Below are positions 1 through 49,954 of a stretch of 64,000 bases of DNA, piece by piece; the first letter of the stretch is position 1; each line of letters starts with the position of its first letter. The notes below the pieces were generated by a model. The model saw only the letters and a list, made by a program, of their open reading frames with translations, made no database searches and was not told the origin of the DNA. This DNA comes from a virus. Made by a program: the position numbers and the translations under genes. The DNA lies in the IMG/VR virus record IMGVR_UViG_3300037307_000721; one strand, given 5' to 3'.

Positions 1-712
1 ACCTGGGCGCCTGGTTCTCCCAGATCTGGAGATAGTCGAATGAGGCTGAGAACGAGGGCCACGCGGTCCAGTTTCGCACGAACACGCCGACGTCCCGGAT
101 GTCCATCGGGAGCGCGGCCGAGTAGTGGTAGGTCCAGGCCGAGCCATCGTTCACCGAGACGTAGACGGCGAACGAGAAGTAGGGGAGTCGCCTGTTGTCG
201 AGCGGGATGGTCGCTGGCTGGCCGGAGGCGTCCGTGTTCCAGTAGATCCGGTAGCGGTGTGGGCTCGTCACCGGCCCGGTGTAGGTCGCGCTCGAGGTGT
301 AGAGGCCCGAGCCGATGTCGCCGATCACCTGCTGCACGTACATCTTGGAGTCGGCCGGGTACCAACCGACCCAGAGCAGGTTGTCGAGATCGTAGCTCAG
401 GAGCAGGCCGCCCAGGAAGCAGGTGTTGGCGCTGTAGGTGAACGCGGTGACTCTGGACTCGGCGTAGTAGAATCCACCGAGGCGCACGCCGCTCGGATCG
501 CGCCCGGCGTCCGCGCCGAGCTCGTTTCGGTTGGACTGCCGCGCGATGGGGGCACGGTTCCAATAGGTCCACAGGTCACAGTAGGCGCCGGCAAGGGCAG
601 AGATGATCAGCGACCCGCCGGACTCGACGATGCTCCCGCCGCCGACGGAATCCTTGCGCCCCGGCGTCGTGCCGTCGAAGTTGTCCGCGAATATGCGCTT
701 GAACTCTGCCAC
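1..712 (-). CDS. Tail-associated lectin-like beta-sandwich protein (partial, runs off the left edge)
   Basis: Not in the ORF track. I read GTG at 712 with GGAG upstream and an open frame to base 1 (MAEFKRIFADNFDG...GVFVRNWTAWPSFSASFDYLQIW...). It resembles the middle domain of 724-3657. Confidence 0.7.
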   Translation of the reverse strand, partial: MAEFKRIFADNFDGTTPGRKDSVGGGSIVESGGSLIISALAGAYCDLWTYWNRAPIARQSNRNELGADAGRDPSGVRLGGFYYAESRVTAFTYSANTCFLGGLLLSYDLDNLLWVGWYPADSKMYVQQVIGDIGSGLYTSSATYTGPVTSPHRYRIYWNTDASGQPATIPLDNRRLPYFSFAVYVSVNDGSAWTYHYSAALPMDIRDVGVFVRNWTAWPSFSASFDYLQIWENQAPR

Positions 713-723
713 CTGGTTCTCTC

Positions 724-27687: not shown

Positions 27688-28371
27688 TCAGCTCCCCTTC
27701 AGTCCAAGGCGCATGTCGAACATCGTTGCGACGAAGTCCGGCGCCCACTGCGCGATCTGGTCGAACGTCTGGCCCCAGATGGGTCTCGCCGGGATCCAGG
27801 TCGAGATGGTCTGGCCCGTGTACTGATGCGGCAGGTGCCCGCCGGAAGCGCGGCCGACAACCTGCCCGTACAGCACCCGCAGGTAGTGGCGCATGCGCAG
27901 GGTCACGGGGACCGTTCGCACGAACCCGGTCTCCTGGAGCGCCGCGATCCACGACAGCGGAATCGTCTGGCCTCCGGAGAAGGCTCCCTTGATTCCCGCG
28001 AGCACACCGACGACGAAGCGGAGCGGTGCCATCTTCTCGTAGTCGATCGCCTTGGCGAGCTCTCCACTACGACGAAGGGGCCGCGCCGACGGGTACGCCG
28101 GGATCGGCGGCCATACCTCGCCCTGCGTCTTGCCGATCCTGTACTTGCTGCGCGACCCGAACGCGAGAGGCGGCTGGGCCGAGCCCTGCGAGACGGCCGC
28201 GGACACCGATAGCGTCGCACGCTGTGCGAGCTCTTCGAGCACTTGCGACAGAGCGGACTTGGTCCGCTCGCGAATCGTCTTCGGAGTGGCCTGCGCCTCG
28301 GCCATGCCCTTCATCTCGAAGCGCAAGTCGATCGAGCCGATAGAACCCGTGACGAGCGTCGAGCTTGCCAT
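27688..28371 (-). CDS. Neck/tail completion protein (HK97 gp10 / virion morphogenesis-like)
   Basis: Start moved to ATG 28371 (overlaps the upstream TGA). PLRRSGELAKAI and IPARPIW motifs. Confidence 0.7.
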   Translation of the reverse strand: MASSTLVTGSIGSIDLRFEMKGMAEAQATPKTIRERTKSALSQVLEELAQRATLSVSAAVSQGSAQPPLAFGSRSKYRIGKTQGEVWPPIPAYPSARPLRRSGELAKAIDYEKMAPLRFVVGVLAGIKGAFSGGQTIPLSWIAALQETGFVRTVPVTLRMRHYLRVLYGQVVGRASGGHLPHQYTGQTISTWIPARPIWGQTFDQIAQWAPDFVATMFDMRLGLKGS

Positions 28372-28898
28372 CAGGTCACCTTCTCGCGATCGGCCAGGTA
28401 CGCCAGGTATAGGTCGGTCCCGTCGACGCCGAAGCCGAACGAGGCCGGCTGGAGCTCCACGATGTAGAGCCCAGGCGGGTCGATGTGCACCGTCGGTACG
28501 CGCGGCTGCTTGAAGGATTCGATCGCCGAGATACGATCGTTGACCTTCAGCAAGAGCTTCTTCGTGCTCTTGTCGACCAGCTTCAGGCGCTTGAGGTCTG
28601 TCCGATGAAAGACGAGCGTGAAGCCCGTCTGCGGATCGTCGCCGGGCGGCACCTGGGCCAGACGCTCGAACCTGATCATCTCGACCTGACAGGGGATGCG
28701 AATGGCAGGCAGCTCGCTGCGCGCGTTCTCGCGCACGGTCTTGCCTTGGCGCGTGGCGTCGTAGGTGACGGGCTCGCGAAAGTCCTTGTCGTAGCCACTC
28801 GTCTGTCCAGCGGGTTGAAGCGAGCGAGTCGCCGACGGATTCAGTCGATGAACCACCGCGAGCGACTTCTCGAGAACGAGTGGTACGCTGAAGGGCAT
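28371..28898 (-). CDS. Head closure (stopper)-like protein
   Basis: 175 aa. GYDKDFREP...LKVNDRI...LYIVELQP. Position fits. Confidence 0.65.
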   Translation of the reverse strand: MPFSVPLVLEKSLAVVHRLNPSATRSLQPAGQTSGYDKDFREPVTYDATRQGKTVRENARSELPAIRIPCQVEMIRFERLAQVPPGDDPQTGFTLVFHRTDLKRLKLVDKSTKKLLLKVNDRISAIESFKQPRVPTVHIDPPGLYIVELQPASFGFGVDGTDLYLAYLADREKVT

Positions 28899-30927: not shown

Positions 30928-31269
30928 CTAGATGCACTCCACCCAGAGGATGACGTCGGTGGCCGCGGTCAGCGCCGTGTTGGCGATCTCGACGCCGGTC
31001 GAGCCCATGAAGAACATGAGCTTGTCGTTGGCCTGGTCGTAGACCGGGTGCAGCAGGACGACGCCGCCGGCCGCGTCCTTGAGGGGCGTGGCCAGCTTCA
31101 CGCCGACGACCGTGACGTCGCGCTGCAGAGCGGCGCGCACGAAGTCCTGGAAGTCGGCGTAGCCGCCGGCCGGGTAGGCCGCGTCGGCCTTGAAGCTGAA
31201 CATGTGAACGTCGAGGGGCGCCGAAGCCGACTTCTTCAGCTGCGTGACGGTCGGGGTTCCGAGTGCCAT
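30928..31269 (-). CDS. Putative head decoration protein
   Basis: ATG 31269 with GGAGGA SD. 113 aa, DxxYPAGG motif, directly after the capsid gene. Confidence 0.65.
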   Translation of the reverse strand: MALGTPTVTQLKKSASAPLDVHMFSFKADAAYPAGGYADFQDFVRAALQRDVTVVGVKLATPLKDAAGGVVLLHPVYDQANDKLMFFMGSTGVEIANTALTAATDVILWVECI

Positions 31270-31369: not shown

Positions 31370-32293
31370 CTACGCGCCCTTGATGTTGATGCCCTTCACC
31401 ACCGCGTTCGCCTCGGCCAGCTTCACGTCGAACCGGACGGTCGCGACGATGATGACCACGCCCGCGGAGATGTCCTCGTCCACCTTCAGCCGGATCTGCC
31501 GCAGCACGCCCAGGTAGATGCCCGACGGGTCCGTGAGCAGCGCCTGGGTGTTGGAGGACAGGTCCACCGGGAACTCCGGCACCGCGTTGACCGGCATGTC
31601 GGCGTACTTCGCCACGTCGGACTGCTGGAGCATCGCGTCGCCGAGGCCGGTGGCGCGGTCCGCCAGGGAGTCCTTGTAGTCGATCCGGGCCTGCCGGTTC
31701 GTGAAGTACTGCATGCCGCCCAGCATGGCGAACTCGTCCGGCATCATGCGGAGCATGTCGCGCAGGATGGTCTTGGACAGCTTCGCCCCGGAGGCGTTGA
31801 CCGACCAGACGTTCGCCTGGACCAGGATGCCGTCCAGCTTGGCCAGCACGGGGTCGGTGGAGGTGACGTCGCCGTTGATGGCCACCCACTCCATGTCGCG
31901 GCCGATGGCCGCGGAGAGCTGCTGCATGAGGGTCTCGCGGAAGACGCCGCGCTCGATCTGGTCCTCGAGGACCTCGTCGGAGAGCCGGACCTCGGCCTTG
32001 AAGAGCTGAGCGTCCAGCGTGAACATCCCGAGCGCCGGCTTGGCCCAGGCCGCCGACGGCAGGGCCGTGGCCTCCTGGCCCGCACGCAGCACGCGGGAGG
32101 CGAAGCGCATCTTGTCGCGCTCCTCCTTGAAGTTCTTCATCGGAGTGACCGTGACCATCTTGAGGAGCACGGGCTCCTTGATCGCGAGCTGGATGAACTC
32201 GCTGGCCTGCGCTGGTTGAAGCAACCCACCTGCCGCGAAGTCAGCGACCGCGATCTCGGCCTTCCGGAGGAGGGTCCTGTTTTCCGTCGACAT
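31370..32293 (-). CDS. Major capsid protein (HK97 fold, PBSX XkdG/P2-like)
   Basis: GGLLQPAQASEFI, LSDEVLEDQIE, AIGRDMEWVAINGD, ALLTDPSGIYLGVLRQIRL. AGGAGG SD. Confidence 0.93.
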   Translation of the reverse strand: MSTENRTLLRKAEIAVADFAAGGLLQPAQASEFIQLAIKEPVLLKMVTVTPMKNFKEERDKMRFASRVLRAGQEATALPSAAWAKPALGMFTLDAQLFKAEVRLSDEVLEDQIERGVFRETLMQQLSAAIGRDMEWVAINGDVTSTDPVLAKLDGILVQANVWSVNASGAKLSKTILRDMLRMMPDEFAMLGGMQYFTNRQARIDYKDSLADRATGLGDAMLQQSDVAKYADMPVNAVPEFPVDLSSNTQALLTDPSGIYLGVLRQIRLKVDEDISAGVVIIVATVRFDVKLAEANAVVKGINIKGA

Positions 32294-32352: not shown

Positions 32353-33993
32353 CTAGTTGCCCTTGCTGGCGCTTGCGCGCTTGGCCAGGGCCTCGCGGTA
32401 GGCGGGCGAGTTGAAGTTGTCCGGGAACAGCGGCGGTTCGACTTCCCCGCCACCATCGGTCGAGCCCTCATCCCCGGTCGAAGCCGGCGCCTGCACGGTC
32501 CCGCGGGCCTTCGCCACGAGGGTCTGCAGCTCGCCGATCTGCTTCTGCATGGCCTCCATCTTGGCCAGGAGCTCGGCGTTGGGGTTGTCCTTCGGCGGCT
32601 CGGTGACCGGCGCGGGCTCGCCGGCGGCCGGCGGCTCGGTGACCGGCGCGGCGGTCGGGGCCGGCTCGGCCTGGACCGGAGCGGGCTCGGCCGGCGCGGC
32701 CGCCTGGGCCGGCGCCGGGGCGGGCTCGCCCTGGCCGTCGGCCTTGATCATCTTGTGCTTGGCGAGCTGCTCCTCGAAGTCGGCCAGGAAGCGATCGACG
32801 CTGAGCAGCGAGCCCAGGTCGGCGAGCTCCATGTCGCCCGACTTCTTGATGCCCGGGTACTTCTCGATGAGCCCCTGGAGCAGCGCGGTGATCGCCTTCA
32901 TCTCCTTGATGGCCCGGGCCTCGTTGAAGCCCGACAGCTGGGCCTTCTTCGAGAGGGAGAGCGCGCGCTCGGCCACCTCACGCAGCGTGACCGCGAAGCG
33001 GTTGGCGGCCTTCTCGATCTTGTCGGGCAGAGCGGCCCCCAGGGCCTCGACGGTGTTCAGCACGGCGCCCACCTCGGCGGCCACGGGCTCCGCCAGGGTC
33101 TCCACCGTCTCCTCGTCGTCGGCCACCTTCGAGACCAGGCCCAGGCGCTCGGCCACCTCGCGAAGCACGGAGACCGCGGCCTCGGCGACCTTGTCGTCGT
33201 CCGGGTCCTCGGCGCTCATCACCTCGGGCAGCGCCGCCGCGGCCTCGCTCTTGGCCACCTTGTAGTCGGTGGCGAAGGTCTTGAGCGTGCTCACCAGGTC
33301 CTTGACCTTGGCGATGGTCTCGGGGGCGACCTTGCCGCGGCCGCACTCGCCGGCGAGCGCGAGGGCGGTCTGGGCCACGCTCTTGAGCTGCTTGGCCGGC
33401 GACATCTTCTTGCCCTTGCCCTTGTCCTTCTCGTCGCCGGGAGCGCACGGCGCCGCGGCCTTGGCCGCCGGGGCCGGGTAGGACCCGTCCCCCGAACCGG
33501 GGCTGGGATACTTCTCGCAGACGCCCTTGAGCACACCGATGAGGCTCTGGGCCTCGTCGTTGAGCTTCTTGACGTCCATCTTGGCGCCCTGCTCCTCGAG
33601 AGCCTTGGCGATGGAGAGCGCCTTCTCGGCGACCTCGCGGAACGCCGCGGCGGCCGCGCCCGCCTTCTCGATGTCGACGGCCTGGGGCTCGCCGGCGCCG
33701 GTGGTGTCCTTCTGCAGCTCCGTGACCAGAGCCCCGATCTGGGTCGTCATGCTCTCCAGAGCCGCCGCAGCCCTCTCGAGCTCAGACGCCGTCTCGGGGG
33801 TGTGAAGCCCACCTTCGCCTTCGATGAGCTCCGGCCCCATGTTCTCGTTCGACATTGCGTCCTCCTTAAAGACGATGAACCTCCGCTTGTTAGCGGCTCT
33901 GTCGACTAGATCGACCTTGTAGGGTTCGATTTCACTCAGCCGTCGCTGCTTTCGACCGTCCGGCACTTTACGCGAGTCAAACGGCATCGTCAA
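32353..33993 (-). CDS. Scaffold-like protein with helical repeats; two possible in-frame starts (33993 and 33855)
   Basis: N-terminal V(D/S)LVDRAANKRRF motif of phage scaffold/protease proteins, Ala/Glu helical repeats, Pro-rich C-terminus. Directly upstream of the capsid gene. Confidence 0.8.
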   Translation of the reverse strand: MTMPFDSRKVPDGRKQRRLSEIEPYKVDLVDRAANKRRFIVFKEDAMSNENMGPELIEGEGGLHTPETASELERAAAALESMTTQIGALVTELQKDTTGAGEPQAVDIEKAGAAAAAFREVAEKALSIAKALEEQGAKMDVKKLNDEAQSLIGVLKGVCEKYPSPGSGDGSYPAPAAKAAAPCAPGDEKDKGKGKKMSPAKQLKSVAQTALALAGECGRGKVAPETIAKVKDLVSTLKTFATDYKVAKSEAAAALPEVMSAEDPDDDKVAEAAVSVLREVAERLGLVSKVADDEETVETLAEPVAAEVGAVLNTVEALGAALPDKIEKAANRFAVTLREVAERALSLSKKAQLSGFNEARAIKEMKAITALLQGLIEKYPGIKKSGDMELADLGSLLSVDRFLADFEEQLAKHKMIKADGQGEPAPAPAQAAAPAEPAPVQAEPAPTAAPVTEPPAAGEPAPVTEPPKDNPNAELLAKMEAMQKQIGELQTLVAKARGTVQAPASTGDEGSTDGGGEVEPPLFPDNFNSPAYREALAKRASASKGN

Positions 33994-34164: not shown

Positions 34165-37100
34165 CTAGTCGAGGTTGGCGGCGAGCGCGAAGCCCTCGAT
34201 GCTCCAACCGGTGAGCCGGCCATCCTTGACAGCCTGCCAGAGCGCATCGTCCAGGACGCGCGCGGCCAGGAGCCAGGTGCCCTTCTTGACGAAGTGCCCG
34301 TCGAGGTGCAAGTCCGTCGGGGCGATGTAGCTCTCCAGCACGCGGACCTTGTCCCGGGCGAGCGTGCGCTGGTGCATGAGCCCGAGACGCTGCGTCTCCT
34401 CCATGAAGTAGAACGCCGCCTTGCGCACCGATTCAGCGTCGTAGATGTCGCCCTGGCTGTCGAACTCGTCCGGGACGAGCACGACTCCGAGAACGTAGCG
34501 CTCGTCTTCCTGCTTCACGAGCTCGACCCGATGCGAGCACGCGCCGAACGACTTCGCCAGCGCGTCCGAGTACTCGTCTGCCGACTTCTTCAGCTCGCCT
34601 GAGCCGAGCATCTCGTGCACGTCCTTCAACGACGAAGGACCGCCGTCGGCCTTGTCGACGACGACGGGCGTGAAGCCACGTAGGCGCTTCTTCTCCGCGT
34701 TGGACTCGTCCCAGAGGATCTCGGTCACCTCGATTCGGATGACGTCGCCGACCTTGGCCGCGACCTTCGTGTTGAACGTGCGGCCCGCCTTCACGTAGGT
34801 CTTCCCCGCGACCTCGACGGTCTCGGCCCAGGACCCTGCCTCCTTGCCCGACACGGGGCCAACCGCATAGAAGAAGTTGTGCACACCGGGCGAACCCTTG
34901 ACCGGGTGCGCGTCCCAGATGATGCCGCGGATCTCGCGAATCATCTTGAGCTTGGCCCACGAGTCGGTCTCGCGCAGCGTGACCGTGCTCTGGCTGCTCT
35001 TGAACATGGCGCCCTCGGACCCAATGTACCGACGAGCCCATTCGATCGCCGAGCGCAGCTCCTCCTTGTTGCGGACGAGCTTGTGCGGCACGTAGACGAG
35101 CCGTGTGAAGTCGTGCCCGCGCAGGAAGTCGCGAAGCAGCGCGTTGCGCTCCTCGAGAGGCTTCGCAACCACGTTGCCCTTCTTCGGGTGGTACAGGATG
35201 TCGAACACACGCACTCTGGCGCCCTTGTCCTCGGCCGGGGTCCGGCCGCGAAAGGTGGCCAGCTCGCGACGAGGTACCGGGCCACCGCCCGGCTCGAGCG
35301 CCGTGAACTCGGCATCGAGGATGAATGGTCCGGGCAGCTTGTCGAGCTCCTCCTTCAATCCAGGGAGCTGGTCGATCATGTTGGTGATCGGCGTCTTGCG
35401 ATCCCAGATGTCCTCGGTGATCATCAGGTAGCGGCCGTCCTCGGTCTTCTGGATCGAGGAGCGGAAGCCGTTGAACTTGGGCTCGACTAGGATGCCGCTC
35501 TTGAGCATCTCCGGCGTGGCGAAATCGGTGAACAGCCTATCGAGCTCGTTGGAACGGAACTCGTTCGACTCTCTGCTCGCCGTCTTCATCGGCTTGTAGA
35601 TCGCGAAGGGGCGCAGCCGTTCGCGATCGTGAGTCTTGTCGTCGCCCGGCTTGATGGTCTTCGGATCCCACACCTGCACGTCGGCGATCTTCTTGCCCGA
35701 GGCCAAGGTGATGGTCTCGAGCTTCTCCGCCTTCTCGATGCCCGCGGGAAGCTCGTGCGTGTGACCCTCGGGCTTGTCGTGCGCGTGCCCACGCGCGGGC
35801 TTGACCTTGCGCCCGGAGATCTCGTGCGTGTGGTCGTCCGCCCGGCGCTCCGACCCCTCGCTGATGACGGTGTCGGTCGTCTTGCCATTGCCCTGCGCAT
35901 CGACATGGAAATGGTGCGCATGTCGATGGCTTCGCCCGGCCTCACCCGTCATCGGGGCCGCCGCGCGCTGCACGGGCTCGCCCACGCCCTCGCTCTTCTC
36001 CCAGATCCAGATGGAACCCTCACCAGTCTCCTTCGTCTCGGCACGAAGCACGAGCAGGCCAGAGAGGCCCTTGGGCAAGTCCTTGCCCTTGAGCTTGAAC
36101 TTCTTGAACGCCGGCCCGTCCTCGAGGAACTCGATCGAACCACGAGCCAGGACGGAGATGGACGACGGCGTGTCCTTGGTCGGATTGAGCTCGAGGCCGC
36201 CATAGGACTTGCCCGGCTCCACGTCGCCATCGAGCTTCAAGAGCTCGCCGGCGCCCGCGCCTGTCGCCATCCGATGCACACCGGAGACGCGCTGGCCCGA
36301 GCTCGGGTCCTCCAAGAGCTGGAAGTCCTCGACCTTACCTCCTCGGTCGATGAAGAGGTGGTAGAGCATCCGGCTCGGTGCGGCCCGGATGACCTGCTGG
36401 CCCTTCCAGCGCTGCCAGGACAACGTGAACGGCGCCGAGCTCACGCCCTCCGCTTTTTCTTGACAGGTGAGAGTCTCACCTGTATCGTGGATGGCGGTGG
36501 GCGGGCGAGGCATGTTGCTAGGGCTATGCCCTGTCGCCTCGGTCGGCTCGTAGAGGTAGTACTTCGTCACCACCCGGCGGAACTCGTGGTCGACCAGCTT
36601 CACGTTGCTCGGCGTGAAGAAGTGCTCGGCGACAAGGGCATCGCGAATCTGCTTGCGCTCCTTCTCGTCCTTGGCGTGCCAGTACTGGAACTCCTTGGGC
36701 ACGACGGCCTTGAGCTTGGGTGGTAGGTAGGAATAGCCCTGGGGCGGGATGCGTCCGACCTCGACGGCGCGTGGCTTGAGCACCGAAGGCACCAGGTCCT
36801 TGGCGAACATGGCGACCCAGAAGGGCACGCCCTTGGGCATCTTGCGGCCGGCCTCGACCTCGGGGTCCGAGGGCTTGCCAGCCTCGGAGACCAGGAGCCG
36901 GAAGGTGAGCAGCCCGGAGAACTTGGGGTCCTTCTCGAGGAAGTACTCGTGGAAGTAGGGCGTCCGCTCGCCCCAGGTGACCCGCGGCTCGGCGAGGATC
37001 ACCATGACGCCCGCCTCTTCGCGAGTCGCGCCCACGGTCCCGGGCTCGAAGGCTTCCTCTACGCCCAGCCATTGCTTGGGCTCGGGAGCCTTCGTGGCCG

Positions 37101-39558
37101 CGTAGACCCGGTTGGGCGCGTTGAAAGGCTTGTTCCAGGACGAGCCCTCGACGCTGAAGGTGGCACCGATCTTCTTGGCCTCGGGCAGGGTGTTCACGTC
37201 GGGGACCTTGCCGGCGACCTGCATGGCGAGCGTGTAGCCGATGAGATAGCCGTTGGCGGCGATGCGGAAATCGCCGTGCACGCTCTTGCCCCGGAAGTGC
37301 GCCTGCAGCACAGAGCGCATCGGCTTCTCGCTGTGCGGCGGCTTGAGGAACGGGTCCTCCTTGGCCATGAGCTCGGCGATCGGTTCGACAGGGAGGTCCG
37401 CCTCTCGCATCTCCACGATCGTCTGGTAGTCGTCGCGCCGGCGCACGACGAGGTCGTAGATGGGCACGTTGGCGGTGAAGGGACCGGCCAGGCCGCTCGC
37501 CACATCGTCATCGTCTTTGCCGATGACGCCGCCGTGGAAGGACATGCGCTGCGAGATCTCCTCCGGCATCATGCGGCCGATGCGAAACTTCACGATGTGG
37601 CTCGTGGCTGGATCGAGCGGGCCGCGAACGAGCATGTCGACGTCGTTCTTGGTCACACCGTTGTTGGCCGTCGAGCCCACGATGTAGACAAAGGGGCTGC
37701 GGAGCAGGAACTCCTTGTGAAAGTGCGGCAGGAGCTCCTTGAGCGTGAGCTCGGGGAACTCGCCGTCGCTGCCCGGATGCACCGGGGCGTAGCGGTCGCT
37801 GGGCCCGGCCTTGTAGAGCGAGGCGAGCTGGGCCGGGTTCGGGATGGCGATGCCGCGACGCTTCAGCTCCTCCTCGATGAAGACGATGCCGTTCTCCACG
37901 TCCTCGCGAGAGAGGCCGCCGCCCGCGGTCGTCTTGCCCTCGGCGAAGACCGTCTCGAGCAACTGCTTCGCCTGCGCGTAGAGAGCCAGCAGCACGCCAT
38001 CGTCCATGCCCTTGAGCGCGTTGGGCGTGAGCCCGCGGAAGCTCATCCAGGGCTCCTCGTCCTCCGCGGGCGGGTCTTCGGCCTTCTTGAGTGCGGCGGG
38101 CAGCTCGATGACGGGACCGTAGCGACGCGAGAGGAGAGGCTTGGCGAGCTGCAGCGGCGGATCGTAGGCCGCCACGAGGTGCATCTTCATGTAGAAGACG
38201 GGGCCCTCGGTCGAGAACTCCTCCCGGGAGAACTTGTCGATGCCGGCGAGGACTTCCGCTGGCAGCTTGCTCATGTCCTCGTACTCGGCGCCCTCATTCA
38301 GGGTGATCACGCCCCAGACGTACTGGGCGCCCGCCTTGGTGGGCTGCACCTCGTTGAGCAAGAACTGGCGCTGGCCCACGCGGCCAGTGCGGCGCAGGCG
38401 AGAAAGGACGCCCGTCTCCTCGTCCGCCTTGAGTCGGCGCAGGTTGAACGCCGGGTCGGGCAGCTTCAGAGTCGGCAGTTTGCCCTTGGGCTGCTCGGCC
38501 ATGGCCACCTCGACGAACGTCTCGTCCTCCCGAATGGGCTTGAGGCCCTGAGCATCCAAGATGTAGAGCGCATCGGGGGCGAGGCCGGACGGCGCCCAGT
38601 CCTTGCCGATCGTGGCGCCCTCCTGGCCGAAGCTCTCCTCGAGCTCGAGGAAGGCCTCCAGGTAGTCGATGGCGTCCTCGGTGAGAGCGAGCGCCCGGGT
38701 CTTCTCGGGCAACGAGCCGACCGTGCGATGCAGCTGCTCGAGCAGGCGCTCGGCCAGGATGAACGGGTTGCCCATGTTCACGGGCGCCGGCGCCGCGACG
38801 CCGAGCATGTCGGCGACCTCGCTGTAGGCGGCGGTCAGCATGGGCCCGATCTGCCCCAGGGCTTTGAGCAGGCGCTGGGCGTGGCCGACGGGCTCCATGA
38901 GCCTTTCGGCCTGCTCGCAGATGTCCGGCATGCGCTGGGCGAAGGCCTGCGCCAGGCCGAGCGCGCGCTGGACGGCAGCCTTCTGGGGCCGGGTCATGCC
39001 GGCGAGCTCTTCGGCCTTGGGCGAACGCTTGAAGCGCGGCTCGAGCACGAAGGTCTGTGCACCCTGCGGGGCTTCCCATGCCTTCGGCTTGTCGAAGGGC
39101 TCGAGCTCCTCGATGCGATAGGCATAGAGACGACGAGCCTTCGGCCACCACTTCTTGCGCTCCTCCTCGGTGATCTTGTGCTGCGAGCGGAGCCGACGGA
39201 ATTCGGCGAGCGAGATGGGCTTGGGCTTGGCCAGCGACATCACGCCGTACACGAACTCCTTGTCGCCGAAGTAGAGCTTCTCGCCGACGACGTTGTAGAC
39301 GCGCGCGTGCACGATGAGCTTCTTCGCTCCCTCCCACACGAGCTTGGCATGCGGCTCGACCAGGATACGAAGGCGCCTCGGCTTGTCGTCTGAGACCTGA
39401 GAAGTCGCCGCCAGGGGCACGTCGGCCGTCGTGATCTCGTCCTTGGCAATCTCCGCCTTGATGGCGGCCGTGCGCACGAGCCGGGAAAGGCCTTGCAGGC
39501 CAGTCGCCAGCTGCTCCAGGCGCTTGCGAACGTCGTCTCTGCTGTTCCGTTCCATCAT
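34165..39558 (-). CDS. Multidomain polyprotein: 2x ASCH/PUA-like, Pol-beta nucleotidyltransferase, 2x LigD-type 3'-phosphoesterase, HxH repeats, ATP-dependent ligase + OB, XkdF prohead protease
   Basis: Ligase motifs EPKFNG, FILDAEF, RVFDILY, EGAMFK, WAKLK. XkdF motifs RYVLGVVLVPDEFDSQGD, GLMH, TGWSIEG. NTase VGS-x8-DVD. PE motif QAH..HGDFR. Confidence 0.85.
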   Translation of the reverse strand: MMERNSRDDVRKRLEQLATGLQGLSRLVRTAAIKAEIAKDEITTADVPLAATSQVSDDKPRRLRILVEPHAKLVWEGAKKLIVHARVYNVVGEKLYFGDKEFVYGVMSLAKPKPISLAEFRRLRSQHKITEEERKKWWPKARRLYAYRIEELEPFDKPKAWEAPQGAQTFVLEPRFKRSPKAEELAGMTRPQKAAVQRALGLAQAFAQRMPDICEQAERLMEPVGHAQRLLKALGQIGPMLTAAYSEVADMLGVAAPAPVNMGNPFILAERLLEQLHRTVGSLPEKTRALALTEDAIDYLEAFLELEESFGQEGATIGKDWAPSGLAPDALYILDAQGLKPIREDETFVEVAMAEQPKGKLPTLKLPDPAFNLRRLKADEETGVLSRLRRTGRVGQRQFLLNEVQPTKAGAQYVWGVITLNEGAEYEDMSKLPAEVLAGIDKFSREEFSTEGPVFYMKMHLVAAYDPPLQLAKPLLSRRYGPVIELPAALKKAEDPPAEDEEPWMSFRGLTPNALKGMDDGVLLALYAQAKQLLETVFAEGKTTAGGGLSREDVENGIVFIEEELKRRGIAIPNPAQLASLYKAGPSDRYAPVHPGSDGEFPELTLKELLPHFHKEFLLRSPFVYIVGSTANNGVTKNDVDMLVRGPLDPATSHIVKFRIGRMMPEEISQRMSFHGGVIGKDDDDVASGLAGPFTANVPIYDLVVRRRDDYQTIVEMREADLPVEPIAELMAKEDPFLKPPHSEKPMRSVLQAHFRGKSVHGDFRIAANGYLIGYTLAMQVAGKVPDVNTLPEAKKIGATFSVEGSSWNKPFNAPNRVYAATKAPEPKQWLGVEEAFEPGTVGATREEAGVMVILAEPRVTWGERTPYFHEYFLEKDPKFSGLLTFRLLVSEAGKPSDPEVEAGRKMPKGVPFWVAMFAKDLVPSVLKPRAVEVGRIPPQGYSYLPPKLKAVVPKEFQYWHAKDEKERKQIRDALVAEHFFTPSNVKLVDHEFRRVVTKYYLYEPTEATGHSPSNMPRPPTAIHDTGETLTCQEKAEGVSSAPFTLSWQRWKGQQVIRAAPSRMLYHLFIDRGGKVEDFQLLEDPSSGQRVSGVHRMATGAGAGELLKLDGDVEPGKSYGGLELNPTKDTPSSISVLARGSIEFLEDGPAFKKFKLKGKDLPKGLSGLLVLRAETKETGEGSIWIWEKSEGVGEPVQRAAAPMTGEAGRSHRHAHHFHVDAQGNGKTTDTVISEGSERRADDHTHEISGRKVKPARGHAHDKPEGHTHELPAGIEKAEKLETITLASGKKIADVQVWDPKTIKPGDDKTHDRERLRPFAIYKPMKTASRESNEFRSNELDRLFTDFATPEMLKSGILVEPKFNGFRSSIQKTEDGRYLMITEDIWDRKTPITNMIDQLPGLKEELDKLPGPFILDAEFTALEPGGGPVPRRELATFRGRTPAEDKGARVRVFDILYHPKKGNVVAKPLEERNALLRDFLRGHDFTRLVYVPHKLVRNKEELRSAIEWARRYIGSEGAMFKSSQSTVTLRETDSWAKLKMIREIRGIIWDAHPVKGSPGVHNFFYAVGPVSGKEAGSWAETVEVAGKTYVKAGRTFNTKVAAKVGDVIRIEVTEILWDESNAEKKRLRGFTPVVVDKADGGPSSLKDVHEMLGSGELKKSADEYSDALAKSFGACSHRVELVKQEDERYVLGVVLVPDEFDSQGDIYDAESVRKAAFYFMEETQRLGLMHQRTLARDKVRVLESYIAPTDLHLDGHFVKKGTWLLAARVLDDALWQAVKDGRLTGWSIEGFALAANLD
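36460..36488 (+). promoter_or_regulatory. Antisense sigma70-like promoter TTGACA-N17-TATCGT with embedded 10-bp inverted repeat (36463-36483)
   Basis: Exact -35, 17-nt spacer, TAnnnT -10. ACAGGTGAGA g TCTCACCTGT fills the spacer. Lies in a low-GC3 linker of the polyprotein gene. Confidence 0.6.
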
Positions 39559-39616: not shown

Positions 39617-40057
39617 CTAGGTCGGGGTCCAGATGCGAGAGCCAGGCTTCGGTGGATCGAAGGCCTTGCCGTCGAGCTCGGCGCGAAGCGCGTGGCCCAT
39701 CAGGTCGAGGGTCTGCTCGAGCGAGTAGCCGACGTCTCCACGTGCGTGCCTGATCCAGTTCTCGCAGATCTTGAAGCGGCGCTTGACCTCGCTGACGGTC
39801 GGCTTGGTGTAGCCGAACGGGTTGCGCCGGACGTCTTCGGCGAAGCTTCGCCAGATCACGCCCTCGAGCGTCTCGAAAACCCGGCGTAGGTCATCGTCGC
39901 TCTTGACCAGCGCGGCGAACGGCTTGCGGTCGAACTCGAGCTGCGGGACTCCGTCCTCGGCCAGCTTCTTGGTGATCTCGACGCGCTCGTCCACCTTCTT
40001 CGCGCTCTCCACCTCACTCTCGACGAATTGCTCTACTGCTTCCTTTACCTCGCTCAT
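39617..40057 (-). CDS. Hypothetical protein between portal and protease polyprotein
   Basis: True start ATG 40057 (ATGA overlap with the portal stop, AGGAGG SD). 146 aa. Confidence 0.75.
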   Translation of the reverse strand: MSEVKEAVEQFVESEVESAKKVDERVEITKKLAEDGVPQLEFDRKPFAALVKSDDDLRRVFETLEGVIWRSFAEDVRRNPFGYTKPTVSEVKRRFKICENWIRHARGDVGYSLEQTLDLMGHALRAELDGKAFDPPKPGSRIWTPT

Positions 40058-41847
40058 TGAGCATCCTCCTCGGTCAGGCCGCCGCCGATGGCTTGCAACG
40101 GCGTGCCGGCCCGACGGATCTGGAGCGGCGCGGGCGCGGGCCCGCGGTTCATGTCCGCCTCGGGTGGCACGGACTCCTCCGGTTTCACCGGCACGGGGCT
40201 CGTGCCGATGCCAAGCTGATCTGGACTCGTCGCAGTGTGCAGCTGCGCCAGGATGTAGGGCAGCGGCTTGTTCGTCCACTCCTCTGCGAGGTCCTCGAAC
40301 GTGCGGTTGAAGATGTCTGCGCAGAGCTCGCGCGCCTCGGAGATCATCAACACGCCGGCCTTGACCAGGTTGACGACCATCTCGGCCATGGCCTCTGGGT
40401 CGCGCACGATCGGCGAGTTCGAGCGGAAGATCCAGAACGTGATGTCGAGCTCGGGGAAGAGCTCGCGGTTGATGAACGAGTCGAAGTGCTCGCGCTCCGG
40501 CTCGAAGACCTGCTCCTCGGCGAACTTGAGCGCGGCGTAGGCCGTGGCGCGGTTCATCTGCTTGTCGTCGCCGCGCAAGATGCGTGGCAGGCGGAAGGCA
40601 CGCGCCACCTTCTCCTCGTTGCGCACGTCGTAGTTCTGGAACAGCGCGTCCTGCAGCTGCGCGTCGCGCAGCGGTACGAACATGACCTTGGGCACCGTGC
40701 GTGGCCCGACGTCCCCGGCGCCCTTCTGGCTCTCCGCCTCGAGGACCAGGATGCGGTGCACGCTCTTCTTGCCCTTGAGGTGCTCCTCGATGAACTCCTC
40801 GATCTTGGTGGCCACGCCCTTGCCGAGACGGCCACCGGATACGAGCAGCGCCAGTGGAGGCACGACGTTGTTCTTGAAGTAGTTGAGGTTGACCTCGTCG
40901 AGCTCGCGGCTGCCCATGACGCCGGGCAGGTTGGAGATCCACCGCGGCACACCGTAGGGCGTGTCCGGGGTGAAGATCGCGAAGTGCGCGATCTCCGTCG
41001 CCGGCGCGACGCCGGGCTCTTTCGCCTCGAGGTCCTCGATGGACTCGTAGTACTTGCCGCTCTTCTGCGAGACCACGCGCGGGTCGCCGAACTGCTTGAA
41101 GTAGACCGTCTTGCCGCGCGGCGCGAGCTTGACGTACCGGCGGAAGTGCTTGCGTACCTTGTAGCTCCGCCAGGTGATGTCGGTGACCTTGGCCTTCTCC
41201 TCGACGACGATGGGCTCCTCGTCTTCCTTGAGGAGGCGCATGTTCATCGGGTTCGCGTAGTAGATGCGCGAGACCTCGCCGAGGGCGTTGCGCACGATCT
41301 CCCAGAAGGCATTGCCCAGGACTTCGTAGTCCTGGCGCGTGCGCCGTCGGAGCTCGATGAAGGAGAAGGTGGGACAGACGTAGGAGAAGAAGGCCTTGAG
41401 CCGCGAGTACTCGATGCGCGCGACGCGCCGGAGCTCCTCGATCTTGGCCCCCACCTCCTTCGGGTCCGGCGGCATGCCTGAGGCGGACGCCCCGCCCCGG
41501 TCGTGCGCGTCGAGCGCGTCCTCGTAAAGCATTGCGTCTGAGACGCGCTCGGGCGCCCCCTTGCCGGCGAGGTCGATCGAGGGCACCAGATGGTGCCCAA
41601 ACGAGTCGATGTTCGTCACGTAGGCGTCGATGTTGGGACGCAGGATGGTCGACTGCTCGTAGAGCGTGTACAACTTCTTGAAATCGTAGGGAGGAGCGAG
41701 CGCACCGCCTGGCAGGTTGCCCTCCTTCGACGCGAGGAAGTCGAGCAGCTCCGTTGTCCGGCGCTCGCCACTCCCCAGAATCTCGGCCTTGACGATGGGC
41801 GCCGGGGCCCCTCTCTTGCGAACCACTCTTCGGGTTTTAGTCGCCAC
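40054..41847 (-). CDS. Portal protein (PBSX XkdE-like)
   Basis: DYEVLGNAFWEIVRN, TPYGVPRW, NLNYFKNNVVPPLALLVSGG, KVARAFRLP. Start moved to GTG 41847 (GGAG SD, downstream of the promoter). Confidence 0.92.
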   Translation of the reverse strand: MATKTRRVVRKRGAPAPIVKAEILGSGERRTTELLDFLASKEGNLPGGALAPPYDFKKLYTLYEQSTILRPNIDAYVTNIDSFGHHLVPSIDLAGKGAPERVSDAMLYEDALDAHDRGGASASGMPPDPKEVGAKIEELRRVARIEYSRLKAFFSYVCPTFSFIELRRRTRQDYEVLGNAFWEIVRNALGEVSRIYYANPMNMRLLKEDEEPIVVEEKAKVTDITWRSYKVRKHFRRYVKLAPRGKTVYFKQFGDPRVVSQKSGKYYESIEDLEAKEPGVAPATEIAHFAIFTPDTPYGVPRWISNLPGVMGSRELDEVNLNYFKNNVVPPLALLVSGGRLGKGVATKIEEFIEEHLKGKKSVHRILVLEAESQKGAGDVGPRTVPKVMFVPLRDAQLQDALFQNYDVRNEEKVARAFRLPRILRGDDKQMNRATAYAALKFAEEQVFEPEREHFDSFINRELFPELDITFWIFRSNSPIVRDPEAMAEMVVNLVKAGVLMISEARELCADIFNRTFEDLAEEWTNKPLPYILAQLHTATSPDQLGIGTSPVPVKPEESVPPEADMNRGPAPAPLQIRRAGTPLQAIGGGLTEEDAQ

Positions 41848-41887
41848 CTGATAGTTCTCCCGCATTCTGGAAGGAAGTTCTGCGGCT

Positions 41888-41916
41888 ATGATAGTTAGAG
41901 TGCTCTGGACAGTCAA
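41888..41916 (-). promoter_or_regulatory. Sigma70-type promoter for the head-tail operon (TTGACT-N17-TATCAT)
   Basis: Near-consensus hexamers with 17-nt spacing, about 40 nt upstream of the portal GTG. Confidence 0.7.
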
Positions 41917-41986
41917 ACCCATTTCGTGGCAGCATGTGGACGTCTAAGTCGCAAGCTCGACTTGCCCAAACTGCGGAGGATCTTCC

Positions 41987-49171: not shown

Positions 49172-49954
49172 ATGAGACGCGCGCTGTGCATCGGCATCAA
49201 CAACTACCCGGGGTCGCAGAACGACCTCACGGGTTGCGTCAACGACATGATCGACTGGGCCAAGCTCTTTCGGGACCGTGGCTTCGACGAGGTCGTGACG
49301 CTGCAGGACAGCCAGGCGACCAAGAAGAACATCCTGGATGCCATGGAGCACGGCATCACGCAGACCGGGGCGAAGGACCTCTTCGCCACAACCTTCAGCG
49401 GGCACGGCACCTGGGTGCCCGACGAGGACCACGACGAGGCGGACGGCCGCGACGAGTGCCTGTGCCCGCACGACTTCGACAAGAACCTCATCACCGATGA
49501 CGAGCTCTTCGAGCTCTTCTCCACCCGCCACTTCGGCTCACGCATCGTGATGCTCTCCGACTCGTGTCACTCGGGCTCGGTCGCCCGCATGGCTCCGGCG
49601 CTCGGAACCTCTCGCCGCCTCGTTCGCTTCATGCCGCCGTCGATCTTCCTGCCGGACCGTCGCATCGCGGTGGCCAAACGCCTCGAGAAGGCGCCGTCCA
49701 AGGGCAAGATGCGCTCGACGTGCCTGCTCATCTCGGGCTGCAAGGACACCGAGTACTCCTACGACGCCTGCTTCAACAACCGGCCCAACGGCGCCTTCAC
49801 CTACGCGGCGTTGCAGGCCCTCCAGCACAACCCCGCGACCTACCGGGACTGGTACCTGTGCGTTCGCCAGGCACTGCCCTCGGTGTCGCATCCGCAGACG
49901 CCGCAGTTCACCGCGACGAGCTCGCAGAAGAAGTGGAAGATCCTGGAGGACTAG
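49172..49954 (+). CDS. Metacaspase (peptidase C14)
   Basis: RALCIGINNY, LTGCVND, FSGHG (catalytic His), DEADGRDE, SDSCHSG (catalytic Cys), ISGCKDTEYSYDA, GAFT, QTPQ. Confidence 0.95.
   Translation: MRRALCIGINNYPGSQNDLTGCVNDMIDWAKLFRDRGFDEVVTLQDSQATKKNILDAMEHGITQTGAKDLFATTFSGHGTWVPDEDHDEADGRDECLCPHDFDKNLITDDELFELFSTRHFGSRIVMLSDSCHSGSVARMAPALGTSRRLVRFMPPSIFLPDRRIAVAKRLEKAPSKGKMRSTCLLISGCKDTEYSYDACFNNRPNGAFTYAALQALQHNPATYRDWYLCVRQALPSVSHPQTPQFTATSSQKKWKILED

Follow-up and report, generated by a model that had tools for sequence, protein, structure and literature searches.

The XkdF-type protease located at the C-terminal end of a large polyprotein encoded in the window, i.e., the whole 64,000-nucleotide stretch of viral DNA analysed, is probably the head-maturation protease of this phage, cutting after the Lys of [L/I/V]-x-K↓[A/S/Q]-[E/D/G] (the arrow marks the putative scissile bond) in exposed unstructured stretches. 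This reading relies on the conservation of the signal in the polyprotein linkers, at the N-termini of the capsid and portal proteins, in the scaffold and ahead of the XkdF module, and on an excess of the motif that is both Lys- and head-specific. The chances appear evenly balanced for a broader proposal, namely that proteases of the XkdF/Peptidase_S78_2 type recognize a code common to the whole family, [L/I/V]-x-K↓A-[D/E], and that phages thereby load swappable enzyme modules into the capsid from a single gene; more than a thousand capsid clusters display this code at the capsid N-terminus.

The polyprotein comprises about 11 predicted modules joined by low-confidence linkers, as judged from two AlphaFold2 models (Table 1). 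From the N-terminus these are a helix, an ASCH-like fold, a helical bundle, a second ASCH-like beta module, a small helical module, a small alpha/beta module, two beta modules, a His-rich mini-module, an ATP-dependent DNA ligase, and the XkdF protease. Pfam recognizes the last two (PF01068 and PF14550), and the ASCH and ligase folds were matched by fold search, the ligase module having Foldseek matches to DNA ligases at ~1e-15. The identity of the two beta modules as LigD phosphoesterases could not be confirmed, with no Pfam match at E ≤ 0.01 and a fold search dominated by the ligase. Eighteen homologues of the polyprotein served for comparison; some of them contain extra zinc-ribbon modules, inserted with motif sites on either side. 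The gene order portal, small ORF, polyprotein, scaffold, capsid is common to the window and five related contigs, while in a sixth relative (L005) further genes separate the portal from the polyprotein, and another contig stops short of the capsid gene. The cultured phages PBP180, RcTiptonus, and DLP5 have the same portal-to-capsid gene order as the window.

The protease module matches PF14550 (Peptidase_S78_2) over aa 1681–1791 (3e-25; 89.1 bits, the curated cut-off being 24) and, at 4e-32, the PHROG families of head maturation proteases; no match to PF04586, the HK97-type Peptidase_S78, was found at E ≤ 0.01. His1729 (in GLMHQ) and Ser1786 (in TGWSIEG), invariant in the 18 homologues, are candidate catalytic residues, judging from the family to which the module belongs. 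In the stand-alone XkdF proteins of DLP5 and PBP180 the same signal lies directly ahead of the XkdF fold. When the PDB was searched by sequence and by profile, neither the capsid protein nor the XkdF module found a solved relative, and therefore no mature N-terminus can be read from a structure. The literature searched yielded no published specificity of an XkdF-type prohead protease or Lys-type code, no experimental report of cleavage by such a protease or in this phage, and nothing relevant on PBSX XkdG processing, SIO-2 capsid processing, or the predicted mature N-terminal peptides.

Table 1. Features of the head module and candidate cleavage sites in the window (arrow, putative scissile bond).
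Feature	Position	Strand	Size or residues	Basis or remark
Polyprotein gene	34165..39558	−	1797 aa, ~197 kDa	ORF and translation
Candidate site IAK↓DE, weakly supported	39436..39450	−	K39	end of N-terminal helix
Lost site VAMAE	38494..38508	−	residue 353	alignment; Met at P1
Candidate site LKK↓AE	38077..38091	−	K492	low-pLDDT linker 487–504
Candidate site LYK↓AG	37804..37818	−	K583	low-pLDDT linker 578–598
Candidate site MAK↓ED	37354..37368	−	K733	low-pLDDT linker 702–741
Candidate site QEK↓AE	36448..36462	−	K1035	low-pLDDT linker 998–1038; Gln at P3
Doubtful site WEK↓SE	35989..36003	−	K1188	end of predicted beta strand
Candidate site IEK↓AE	35725..35739	−	K1276	low-pLDDT 1272–1276, adjoins ligase module
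ATP-dependent DNA ligase module	34594..35721	−	aa 1280–1655	PF01068 at 6e-13
Conserved candidate sites LKK↓SA, LAK↓SF, LVK↓QE	34507..34593	−	K1658, K1669, K1682	precede XkdF
XkdF-type prohead serine protease module	34168..34506	−	aa 1685–1797	C-terminal end of polyprotein
Major capsid protein, XkdG-like	31370..32293	−	307 aa	PF05065, phrog_1623
Candidate capsid maturation site LRK↓AE	32255–32269	−	K11	conserved in 6/6 relatives
Portal protein	40054..41922	−		PF04860
Candidate portal site IVK↓AE	41782–41796	−	K45	after variable basic N-terminal stretch
Scaffold-like protein	32353..33993	−	546 aa	nine [LIV]-x-K-[ASQEDGT] matches
Conserved scaffold site VFK↓ED	33859–33873	−
Conserved scaffold site VAK↓SE	33244–33258	−
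Conserved scaffold site IKK↓SG	32836–32850	−
Conserved scaffold site VAK↓AR	32503–32517	−
Rejected: LKKSA, decoration protein	31225..31239	−	113 aa (protein)	gene after capsid gene
Rejected: LVKSD, 146-aa ORF	39896..39910	−	146 aa (ORF)
Probably not a site: L-E-K-S, neck/tail protein	28371–28898 (gene)			near N-terminus
Caspase-family protein	49172–49954			Peptidase_C14, 3e-32

The initial annotation had proposed that a hydrophobic-x-K-[A/S/E/D/Q] motif marks nearly every linker, and all the motif strings it listed were found in their places. In this form the motif occurs 22 times in the window's polyprotein, against 12.6 expected (z 2.8). A logo built from 122 sites, with L, V, or I at P3 in 92%, A/S/Q at P1′ and E/D/G at P2′, leads to [L/I/V]-x-K↓[A/S/Q]-[E/D/G] as the refined consensus of the candidate cut site. 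About seven of the ten linkers carry a strict site, i.e., most but not nearly all; it is missing from the linker 161–181 and, in this phage, from 324–358. The linkers were defined independently of the motif, from the two AlphaFold2 models, which are of medium confidence (mean pLDDT 68 and 76), the underlying alignments being shallow. Across the ten linkers in 18 homologues the motif was found 159 times, compared with 67.5 ± 7.4 in shuffles preserving the composition of each linker, a statistic that overstates independence since the homologues are related to each other. The predicted difference between linkers and folded domains was borne out, with ratios of 2.36 and 1.18, respectively, and the linker excess is seen only with Lys at P1 (Arg 0.90, Glu 0.83, Asp 0.87). 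A mere Lys background is disfavoured as its source: the motif exceeds the composition-matched shuffles, and Lys per se is not enriched in the linkers, which make up 15% of the residues and contain 18 of the 131 Lys. A hydrophobic P3 accompanies all seven family-conserved Lys of the linkers (K492, K583, K733, K1276, K1658, K1669, and K1682), compared with 10 of 34 in the folded parts (Fisher p = 0.0009). Conserved h-x-K triplets occur within folded modules as well, e.g., in the ligase motifs at K1520 and K1536, and thus the sequence alone is insufficient to specify a site and accessibility is assumed. The expected contrast between head and tail genes was also found, the pooled head proteins containing 38 motifs against 22.9 expected (P < 0.001) and the tail proteins 21 against 16.9, which is not a significant enrichment.

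The individual sites of the polyprotein differ in their conservation. At K733 Lys is present in 17 of 18 homologues and a hydrophobic P3 in all 18, as is the motif in that linker; the corresponding figures for Lys and P3 are 16/17 and 15/17 at K492, and 12/13 and 11/13 at K1276, while the K583 site is conserved as h-x-K↓AGPS. The three sites preceding XkdF lie in a region whose pLDDT is low over 1666–1684. K39 borders a low-pLDDT stretch, 40–61, and the motif is present in that linker in 5 of 14 homologues. The site QEKAE, named in the initial annotation, departs from the consensus by its P3, but a proper motif occupies the same linker in 13 of 18 homologues, mostly about 7 aa ahead of the next module. 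WEKSE, also named there, is weak, being located at a strand end just ahead of low-pLDDT residues 1191–1201, with a Lys that is only partly conserved and the motif in 8 of 15 homologues. FKRS/PKAE was rejected as an instance, as it misfits the motif and is conserved in only 2 of 15 homologues. At residue 353, within a stretch of low pLDDT (324–358), the family consensus is h-x-K↓AE-x-P-x-G, and the motif is found in this linker in 10 of 17 homologues. Downstream of some sites lies another short motif, [ST]-T-x-D-V-P.

Outside the polyprotein, the instance in the capsid protein is near-invariant. The proposed LRKAE proved to be conserved family-wide: of 143 diverse homologues, 141 have Lys at the aligned position of a signal 9–20 residues from the N-terminus, 125 have Ala at P1′, and 110 have Asp or Glu at P2′. 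The signal is also present in the cultured phages PBP180, RcTiptonus, and DLP5, the XkdF proteins of which have it immediately ahead of the fold as well. These 143 capsid clusters, regarded as independent, had no part in defining the motif. The Pfam match of the capsid protein begins only at residue 22, its scaffold being encoded by a separate gene, and the mature N-terminus predicted earlier, AEIAVADF, agrees with the family-wide site. The portal signal likewise held, h-h-K-A being kept in 6 of 7 relatives, although the stretch upstream varies in both length and sequence. Repetition of the motif in the scaffold was confirmed too, with 10 instances of its initial form against 4.6 expected (P = 0.013), several of them conserved. 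Two other sites put forward for the head module were not retained: in the LKKSA of the decoration protein P3 varies (L, L, N, E, Q, A) among six relatives, and the Lys of LVKSD in the 146-aa ORF occurs, among six relatives, in the window's copy only. A conserved L-E-K-S in the neck/tail protein is probably part of the fold and not a site.

The idea that one protease processes the entire head module is thus supported by comparison as far as a shared signal is concerned, but not for the sites in the decoration protein and the 146-aa ORF or for FKRS/PKAE and WEKSE. In the mechanism proposed, the polyprotein would be built into the prohead core alongside the scaffold, and the activated protease would trim the capsid protein by 11 residues and the portal by about 45, and chop the scaffold. 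The polyprotein would be divided into pieces 1–39 (~4 kDa), 40–492 (~50 kDa), 493–583 (~10 kDa), 584–733 (~17 kDa), 734–1035 (~33 kDa), 1036–1276 (~27 kDa), 1277–1658 (~42 kDa), and 1683–1797 (~13 kDa). The claim that each enzyme is freed separately would not hold for this phage: with Met in place of Lys at residue 353, the three folded modules nearest the N-terminus would remain linked to one another, and hence not every module would be released. The ligase, ASCH-like, and other nucleic-acid-directed pieces may be retained in the capsid and pass into the host along with the DNA.

How far the cleavage extends is a matter on which a narrower reading can be offered, in which cleavage is confined to the propeptide of the capsid protein, the scaffold, and the junction at which the protease is released, and the cargo is either kept as one large polyvalent protein or degraded. 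It fits with the three sites ahead of XkdF being the best conserved, with the lack of a site in some linkers, and with the known delivery of some polyvalent proteins at full length (PMC5512222). Yet K492, K583, K733, and K1276 are conserved islands in variable disordered linkers, which is hard to explain if they are unused, and modules inserted in the homologues come with their own flanking sites, so this restriction to the classical substrates is unlikely. Still less probable is a non-scissile role of the signal in docking or assembly, for example by contact with the capsid interior, scaffold, or portal. A near-invariant signal at the capsid N-terminus would suit a structural contact, and [ST]-T-x-D-V-P could be a docking element; a contact would, however, have no need for repeats in every linker and many more in the scaffold, and the strict Lys, for which Arg is not tolerated, followed by a small residue and located in unstructured stretches, is a pattern typical of protease subsites.

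If the signal is indeed cut, the cutter might be another enzyme, either the caspase-family protein of the phage, since the window contains a gene with an intact Peptidase_C14 domain and metacaspases cleave after basic residues, or a trypsin-like enzyme of the host. This seems very improbable: Peptidase_C14 is absent from the three cultured phages that have the same capsid signal and XkdF, the signal of stand-alone XkdF proteins directly precedes the XkdF fold, and Arg, usually accepted by both metacaspases and trypsin-like enzymes, shows no excess at P1. Most strongly disfavoured is a functionless product of chance and composition, even though Ala, Glu, and Lys abound in the linkers and the motif was defined only after inspection of the window's sequence, because the count in the linkers is more than matched shuffles give, other P1 residues show no excess, and the capsid test is independent of the motif definition. 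Cleavage by XkdF accordingly remains the preferred reading.

The XkdF-type proteases have a wide distribution that takes in PBSX-like elements and many siphophages and myophages. The code is testable and, if true, would make mature capsid, portal, and cargo proteins, and thereby virion proteomes, predictable from genomes; it would mark the starts and ends of modules in such polyproteins, account for the loading of many separate enzymes into the capsid by one gene, and provide a handle for packaging chosen cargo. Ordinary tryptic proteomics is blind to cuts after Lys, which may be why such processing went unreported. What is already known, from the parts of the sources drawn on here, comprises the C-terminal assemblin-like peptidase of polyvalent proteins and the shared cleavage motifs of T4 and phiKZ; a published Lys-type XkdF code was not found.

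According to the passages of Iyer, Burroughs, Anand, de Souza and Aravind (2017, PMC5512222) used here, the assemblin-like peptidase of polyvalent proteins is always C-terminal and probably processes them, and the 2H domains of such proteins were never seen associated with RNA ligases. The window's polyprotein resembles the proteins described there in that a single phage polypeptide, encoded beside virion genes, unites numerous unrelated enzyme domains (PMC5512222). It differs from them in having an ATP-dependent DNA ligase among its cargo and a Lys-type signal at its joints, whereas those passages contain no cleavage signal and do not name XkdF (PMC5512222). Polyvalent proteins have 2 to 15 distinct domains and a C-terminal assemblin-like peptidase; here there are about 11 modules, and XkdF forms the last ~115 residues.

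In T4 (gp21) and in phiKZ/SPN3US (gp175/gp245), the pertinent passages describe one head protease and a short signal that the capsid and scaffold share with proteins that are packaged or ejected, T4 having capsid-targeting sequences and the internal proteins IPI–III and Alt, with cleaved cargo staying in the head (PMC10052503, PMC7411985). In the same way, [LIV]-x-K↓[ASQ]-[EDG] is common to the capsid, scaffold, and polyprotein cargo in the window. T4 gp21 cleaves after Glu, in L/I-x-E, and phiKZ-like phages use S/A/G-x-E; their proteases are from a different family, and separate genes encode their cargo. In the window's phage, by contrast, P1 is Lys, and the protease is of the XkdF type and fused to the cargo. 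With Lys at P1, no excess of Glu, and a PF14550 protease, the system resembles those of T4 and phiKZ without being a member of their group.

In Staphylococcus phage 80alpha a short signal shared by the capsid and scaffold N-termini directs removal of a short propeptide, the cleavage being performed by a host protease after Phe; unlike the window's phage, 80alpha has no polyprotein cargo. A precedent for cutting after Lys, correctly invoked in the initial annotation, is HK97, whose gp4, a herpesvirus-assemblin-like serine protease, cuts gp5 in an unstructured stretch at K103/S104 (PMC10275583). HK97 gp5 loses a fused 103-residue scaffolding domain, whereas in the window's phage, with its separate scaffold gene, just 11 residues would be removed, and by a protease that matches PF14550 and not PF04586, the family of HK97 gp4.

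The polyprotein encoded in the window matches two Pfam families, an ATP-dependent DNA ligase domain and, at its C terminus, the putative phage serine protease XkdF; for the latter PHROGs concur, with matches to head maturation protease families (4e-32). Eighteen homologues of 1027-2181 residues were found in metagenomes, and the gene order is that of the window in five of the six homologue contigs examined, while the sixth, L005, has extra genes between portal and polyprotein. Two AlphaFold2 models, built from 18-sequence alignments and covering residues 1-800 (mean pLDDT 68) and 700-1797 (mean pLDDT 76), contain about 11 folded modules with low-confidence stretches between them. Fold searches returned ASCH-like folds in the first half of the protein and DNA ligases in the second; identification of two beta modules as LigD-phosphoesterase was not confirmed. 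A His-rich mini-module with repeated H-x-H is weakly similar to a C-terminal extension found on the stand-alone XkdF proteases of the cultured phages RcTiptonus and DLP5 (E about 0.003-0.006 in pairwise comparison); it might bind metal as a partner of XkdF.

The initial annotation held that a motif, hydrophobic-x-K-[A/S/E/D/Q], marks nearly every inter-domain linker and that one protease processes the entire head module after Lys. All the strings it listed are present where it placed them. The window's polyprotein has 22 matches to the motif where its composition predicts 12.6 (z 2.8), and five to K-A-E where 1.1 are expected. Lys as such is not enriched in these linkers, which make up 15% of the residues and hold 18 of 131 Lys; a hydrophobic residue two positions before the Lys (P3, the candidate scissile Lys being P1) is commoner there, at 11 of 18 Lys versus 35 of 113 elsewhere. 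Among the 41 alignment columns of the homologue family with at least 70% Lys, P3 is conserved as hydrophobic in all seven linker columns and in 10 of 34 folded ones (Fisher p=0.0009). An alignment-free count over ten linkers of all homologues gave 159 motifs versus 67.5±7.4 in shuffles preserving the composition of each linker. The excess is specific to Lys (ratio 2.36, versus 0.90 for Arg, 0.83 for Glu, 0.87 for Asp and 1.05 for Gln), and the Lys ratio within folded modules is 1.18. In the logo of 122 aligned sites P3 is L/V/I in 92%, followed by A/K/E/Q at P2, K at P1, A/S/Q at P1', E/D/G at P2' and D/P/E at P3'. Conserved hydrophobic-x-K triplets also lie within folds, e.g., at K1520 and K1536 of the ligase core, so the signal can work only where the chain is exposed.

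Features of the window and of related sequences (linker rows: position in polyprotein residues; details give the low-confidence stretch of the AlphaFold2 models, then homologues with the motif)
Feature	Position	Strand	Details
Polyprotein ORF	34165-39558	minus	5394 bases, 1797 residues; encloses the stretch under study
XkdF (PF14550, Peptidase_S78_2)	residues 1681-1791		Pfam, 89 bits vs cut-off 24
ATP-dependent DNA ligase domain	residues 1350-1538		Pfam
Portal protein	40054-41922	minus	polyprotein neighbour
146-aa ORF		as polyprotein	neighbour
Scaffold-like protein, 546 aa	32353-33993	minus	neighbour
XkdG-like major capsid protein	31370-32293	minus	neighbour
Neck, sheath, tape-measure genes	beyond capsid gene	same
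Caspase-family protease gene	49172-49954	plus	Peptidase_C14, 3e-32; intact; divergent late cluster
Linker	34-62		40-61; 5/14
Linker	158-184		161-181; 2/15
Linker	318-360		324-358; 10/17
Linker	484-508		487-504; 15/18
Linker	574-600		578-598; 13/18
Linker	700-745		702-741; 18/18
Linker	996-1042		998-1038; 13/18
Linker	1184-1204		1191-1201; 8/15
Linker	1266-1282		1272-1276; 8/13
Linker	1650-1688		1666-1684; 17/18
Second motif, E-I-T-T-A-D-V-P	39421-39438 (aa 41-46)
Site with Met for Lys	38494-38508
His-rich mini-module	35746-35955 (aa 1202-1271)
Scaffold N-terminal segment	33859-33930 (aa 22-45)
Same segment, other phages	L007 4890-5981; L008 7639-8958; L009 4125-5351		PBP180 fusion; RcTiptonus and DLP5 scaffold proteins
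Neck/tail protein, 175 aa	28371-28898		L-x-L-E-K-S at 28866-28880 (aa 7-11)
PBP180 capsid gene start	L007 6004-6036		KC847113.1
Portal start, related contig	L003 7802

At linker 484-508 zinc-ribbon modules are inserted in several homologues, each flanked by its own motif sites; one or more such zinc-ribbon-like Cys-x-x-Cys inserts occur in P0003, P0005, P0006, P0007, P0009 and P0012. The equivalent of linker 996-1042 holds large extra regions (130-310 aa) in other relatives. Seven of 18 polyproteins, those of the window and of P0003, P0005, P0006, P0008, P0011 and P0012, also have exactly one copy, in differing linkers, of another short motif, [S/T]-T-x-[D/E]-[V/A]-P. Five of these copies follow a Lys site by a few residues, and the motif may be a docking or targeting element that can shift position.

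Several listed sites fared less well. F-K-R-S and P-K-A-E, which follow the first module, fall outside the motif and lack conservation. W-E-K-S-E is located where a strand ends, and its Lys is conserved only in part; the sites in the 146-aa ORF and in the 113-aa protein encoded next to the capsid gene, on its far side, are not conserved either. Q-E-K-A-E has Gln at P3 in the window, but a proper site is present at this place in most homologues. Before the second ASCH-like module, a site conserved in the family reads V-A-M-A-E here; with Met for Lys the first three folded modules would stay joined in this phage, as a product of about 50 kDa.

The capsid protein offers a test that is independent of the sequence in which the motif was originally noticed. 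Its N-terminal sequence is N-R-x-L-L-x-K-A-[E/D] in each of the six relatives. Searched against 1.8 billion cluster representatives, it matched 1082 proteins at E<=0.001, and among 143 aligned full-length homologues, all below 50% pairwise identity, Lys is found in 141, then Ala in 125 and Asp or Glu in 110, with I/L/V at P3 in 122, the site lying 9-20 residues from the N-terminus. Cultured phages with XkdF and this type of capsid protein carry the signal as well: L-I-R-K-A-E in the PBSX-like Bacillus phage PBP180, L-L-A-K-A-D in RcTiptonus and L-I-K-K-A-D in DLP5. In the deposited PBP180 record the capsid gene starts at the ATG that immediately follows K-A-E. Starting instead from a GTG further upstream gives back the family-conserved N-terminus V-R-N-Q-E-L-I-R-K-A-E, so the annotation probably places the start 11 codons too far downstream.

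In the XkdF proteins of these cultured phages the signal stands directly ahead of the fold (M-S-D-L-I-I-K-K-A-D at the start of the DLP5 protein, V-L-T-K-A-E-D in that of PBP180). Portal proteins have two hydrophobic residues and K-A behind a variable basic N-terminal stretch in six of seven relatives; one apparent exception is probably a gene-start miscall. The called GTG start of the L003 portal coincides with the conserved V-V-K-A; the frame is open upstream and resembles the N-terminus of the L001 portal, so this start was probably miscalled. The scaffold contains ten motifs where 4.6 would be expected (P=0.013); among relatives, five or six sites are conserved. Its conserved N-terminal segment V-D-L-V-D-R-A-A-N-K-R-R-F-x-V-F-K, with a Lys site at its end, is also found at the start of PBP180's XkdF-scaffold fusion and of the scaffold proteins in RcTiptonus and DLP5.

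Head proteins as a group are enriched in the motif, with 38 versus 22.9 expected (P<0.001); nine tail/neck proteins have a non-significant 21 versus 16.9. The refined motif, [L/I/V]-x-K-[A/S/Q]-[E/D/G], gave 12 versus 1.9 in head and 1 versus 1.3 in tail proteins; because head sites served to derive it, the tail count alone is a fair control. L-x-L-E-K-S near the N-terminus of a 175-aa neck/tail protein, conserved in five of five relatives, is probably part of the fold despite its likeness to the signal.

The observation of a linker motif is confirmed, apart from four weak or failed instances, and the one-protease reading is partly supported by a conserved signal shared across head proteins. 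XkdF is the only head protease found in the head module, its cutting after Lys is the most economical reading, and cleavage at these sites by XkdF appears reasonably probable from the sequences. A weaker candidate is the caspase-family protein, whose intact gene lies in the window; three cultured phages have the same signal without such a gene, and the signal accepts no Arg at P1, so its part in head processing is unlikely. XkdF, cutting after the Lys of the signal, would trim the capsid protein by 11 residues and the portal by about 45, fragment the scaffold, release itself and split the polyprotein into pieces of module size. These might be packaged and delivered to the host, by analogy with T4 internal proteins and SPN3US ejection proteins.

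No published Lys-type code for the XkdF family, near-invariant Lys signal at the capsid N-terminus or ligase-bearing polyprotein delimited by such a code was found in the literature. The principle of one head protease, one short signal and cargo cut within the capsid is already known. The HK97 protease likewise cuts after Lys in an unstructured stretch, at K103/S104 (PMC10275583), which supports the XkdF reading, as does the likeness to polyvalent proteins, whose C-terminal assemblin-like peptidases, according to Iyer et al., probably process them during assembly (PMC5512222).
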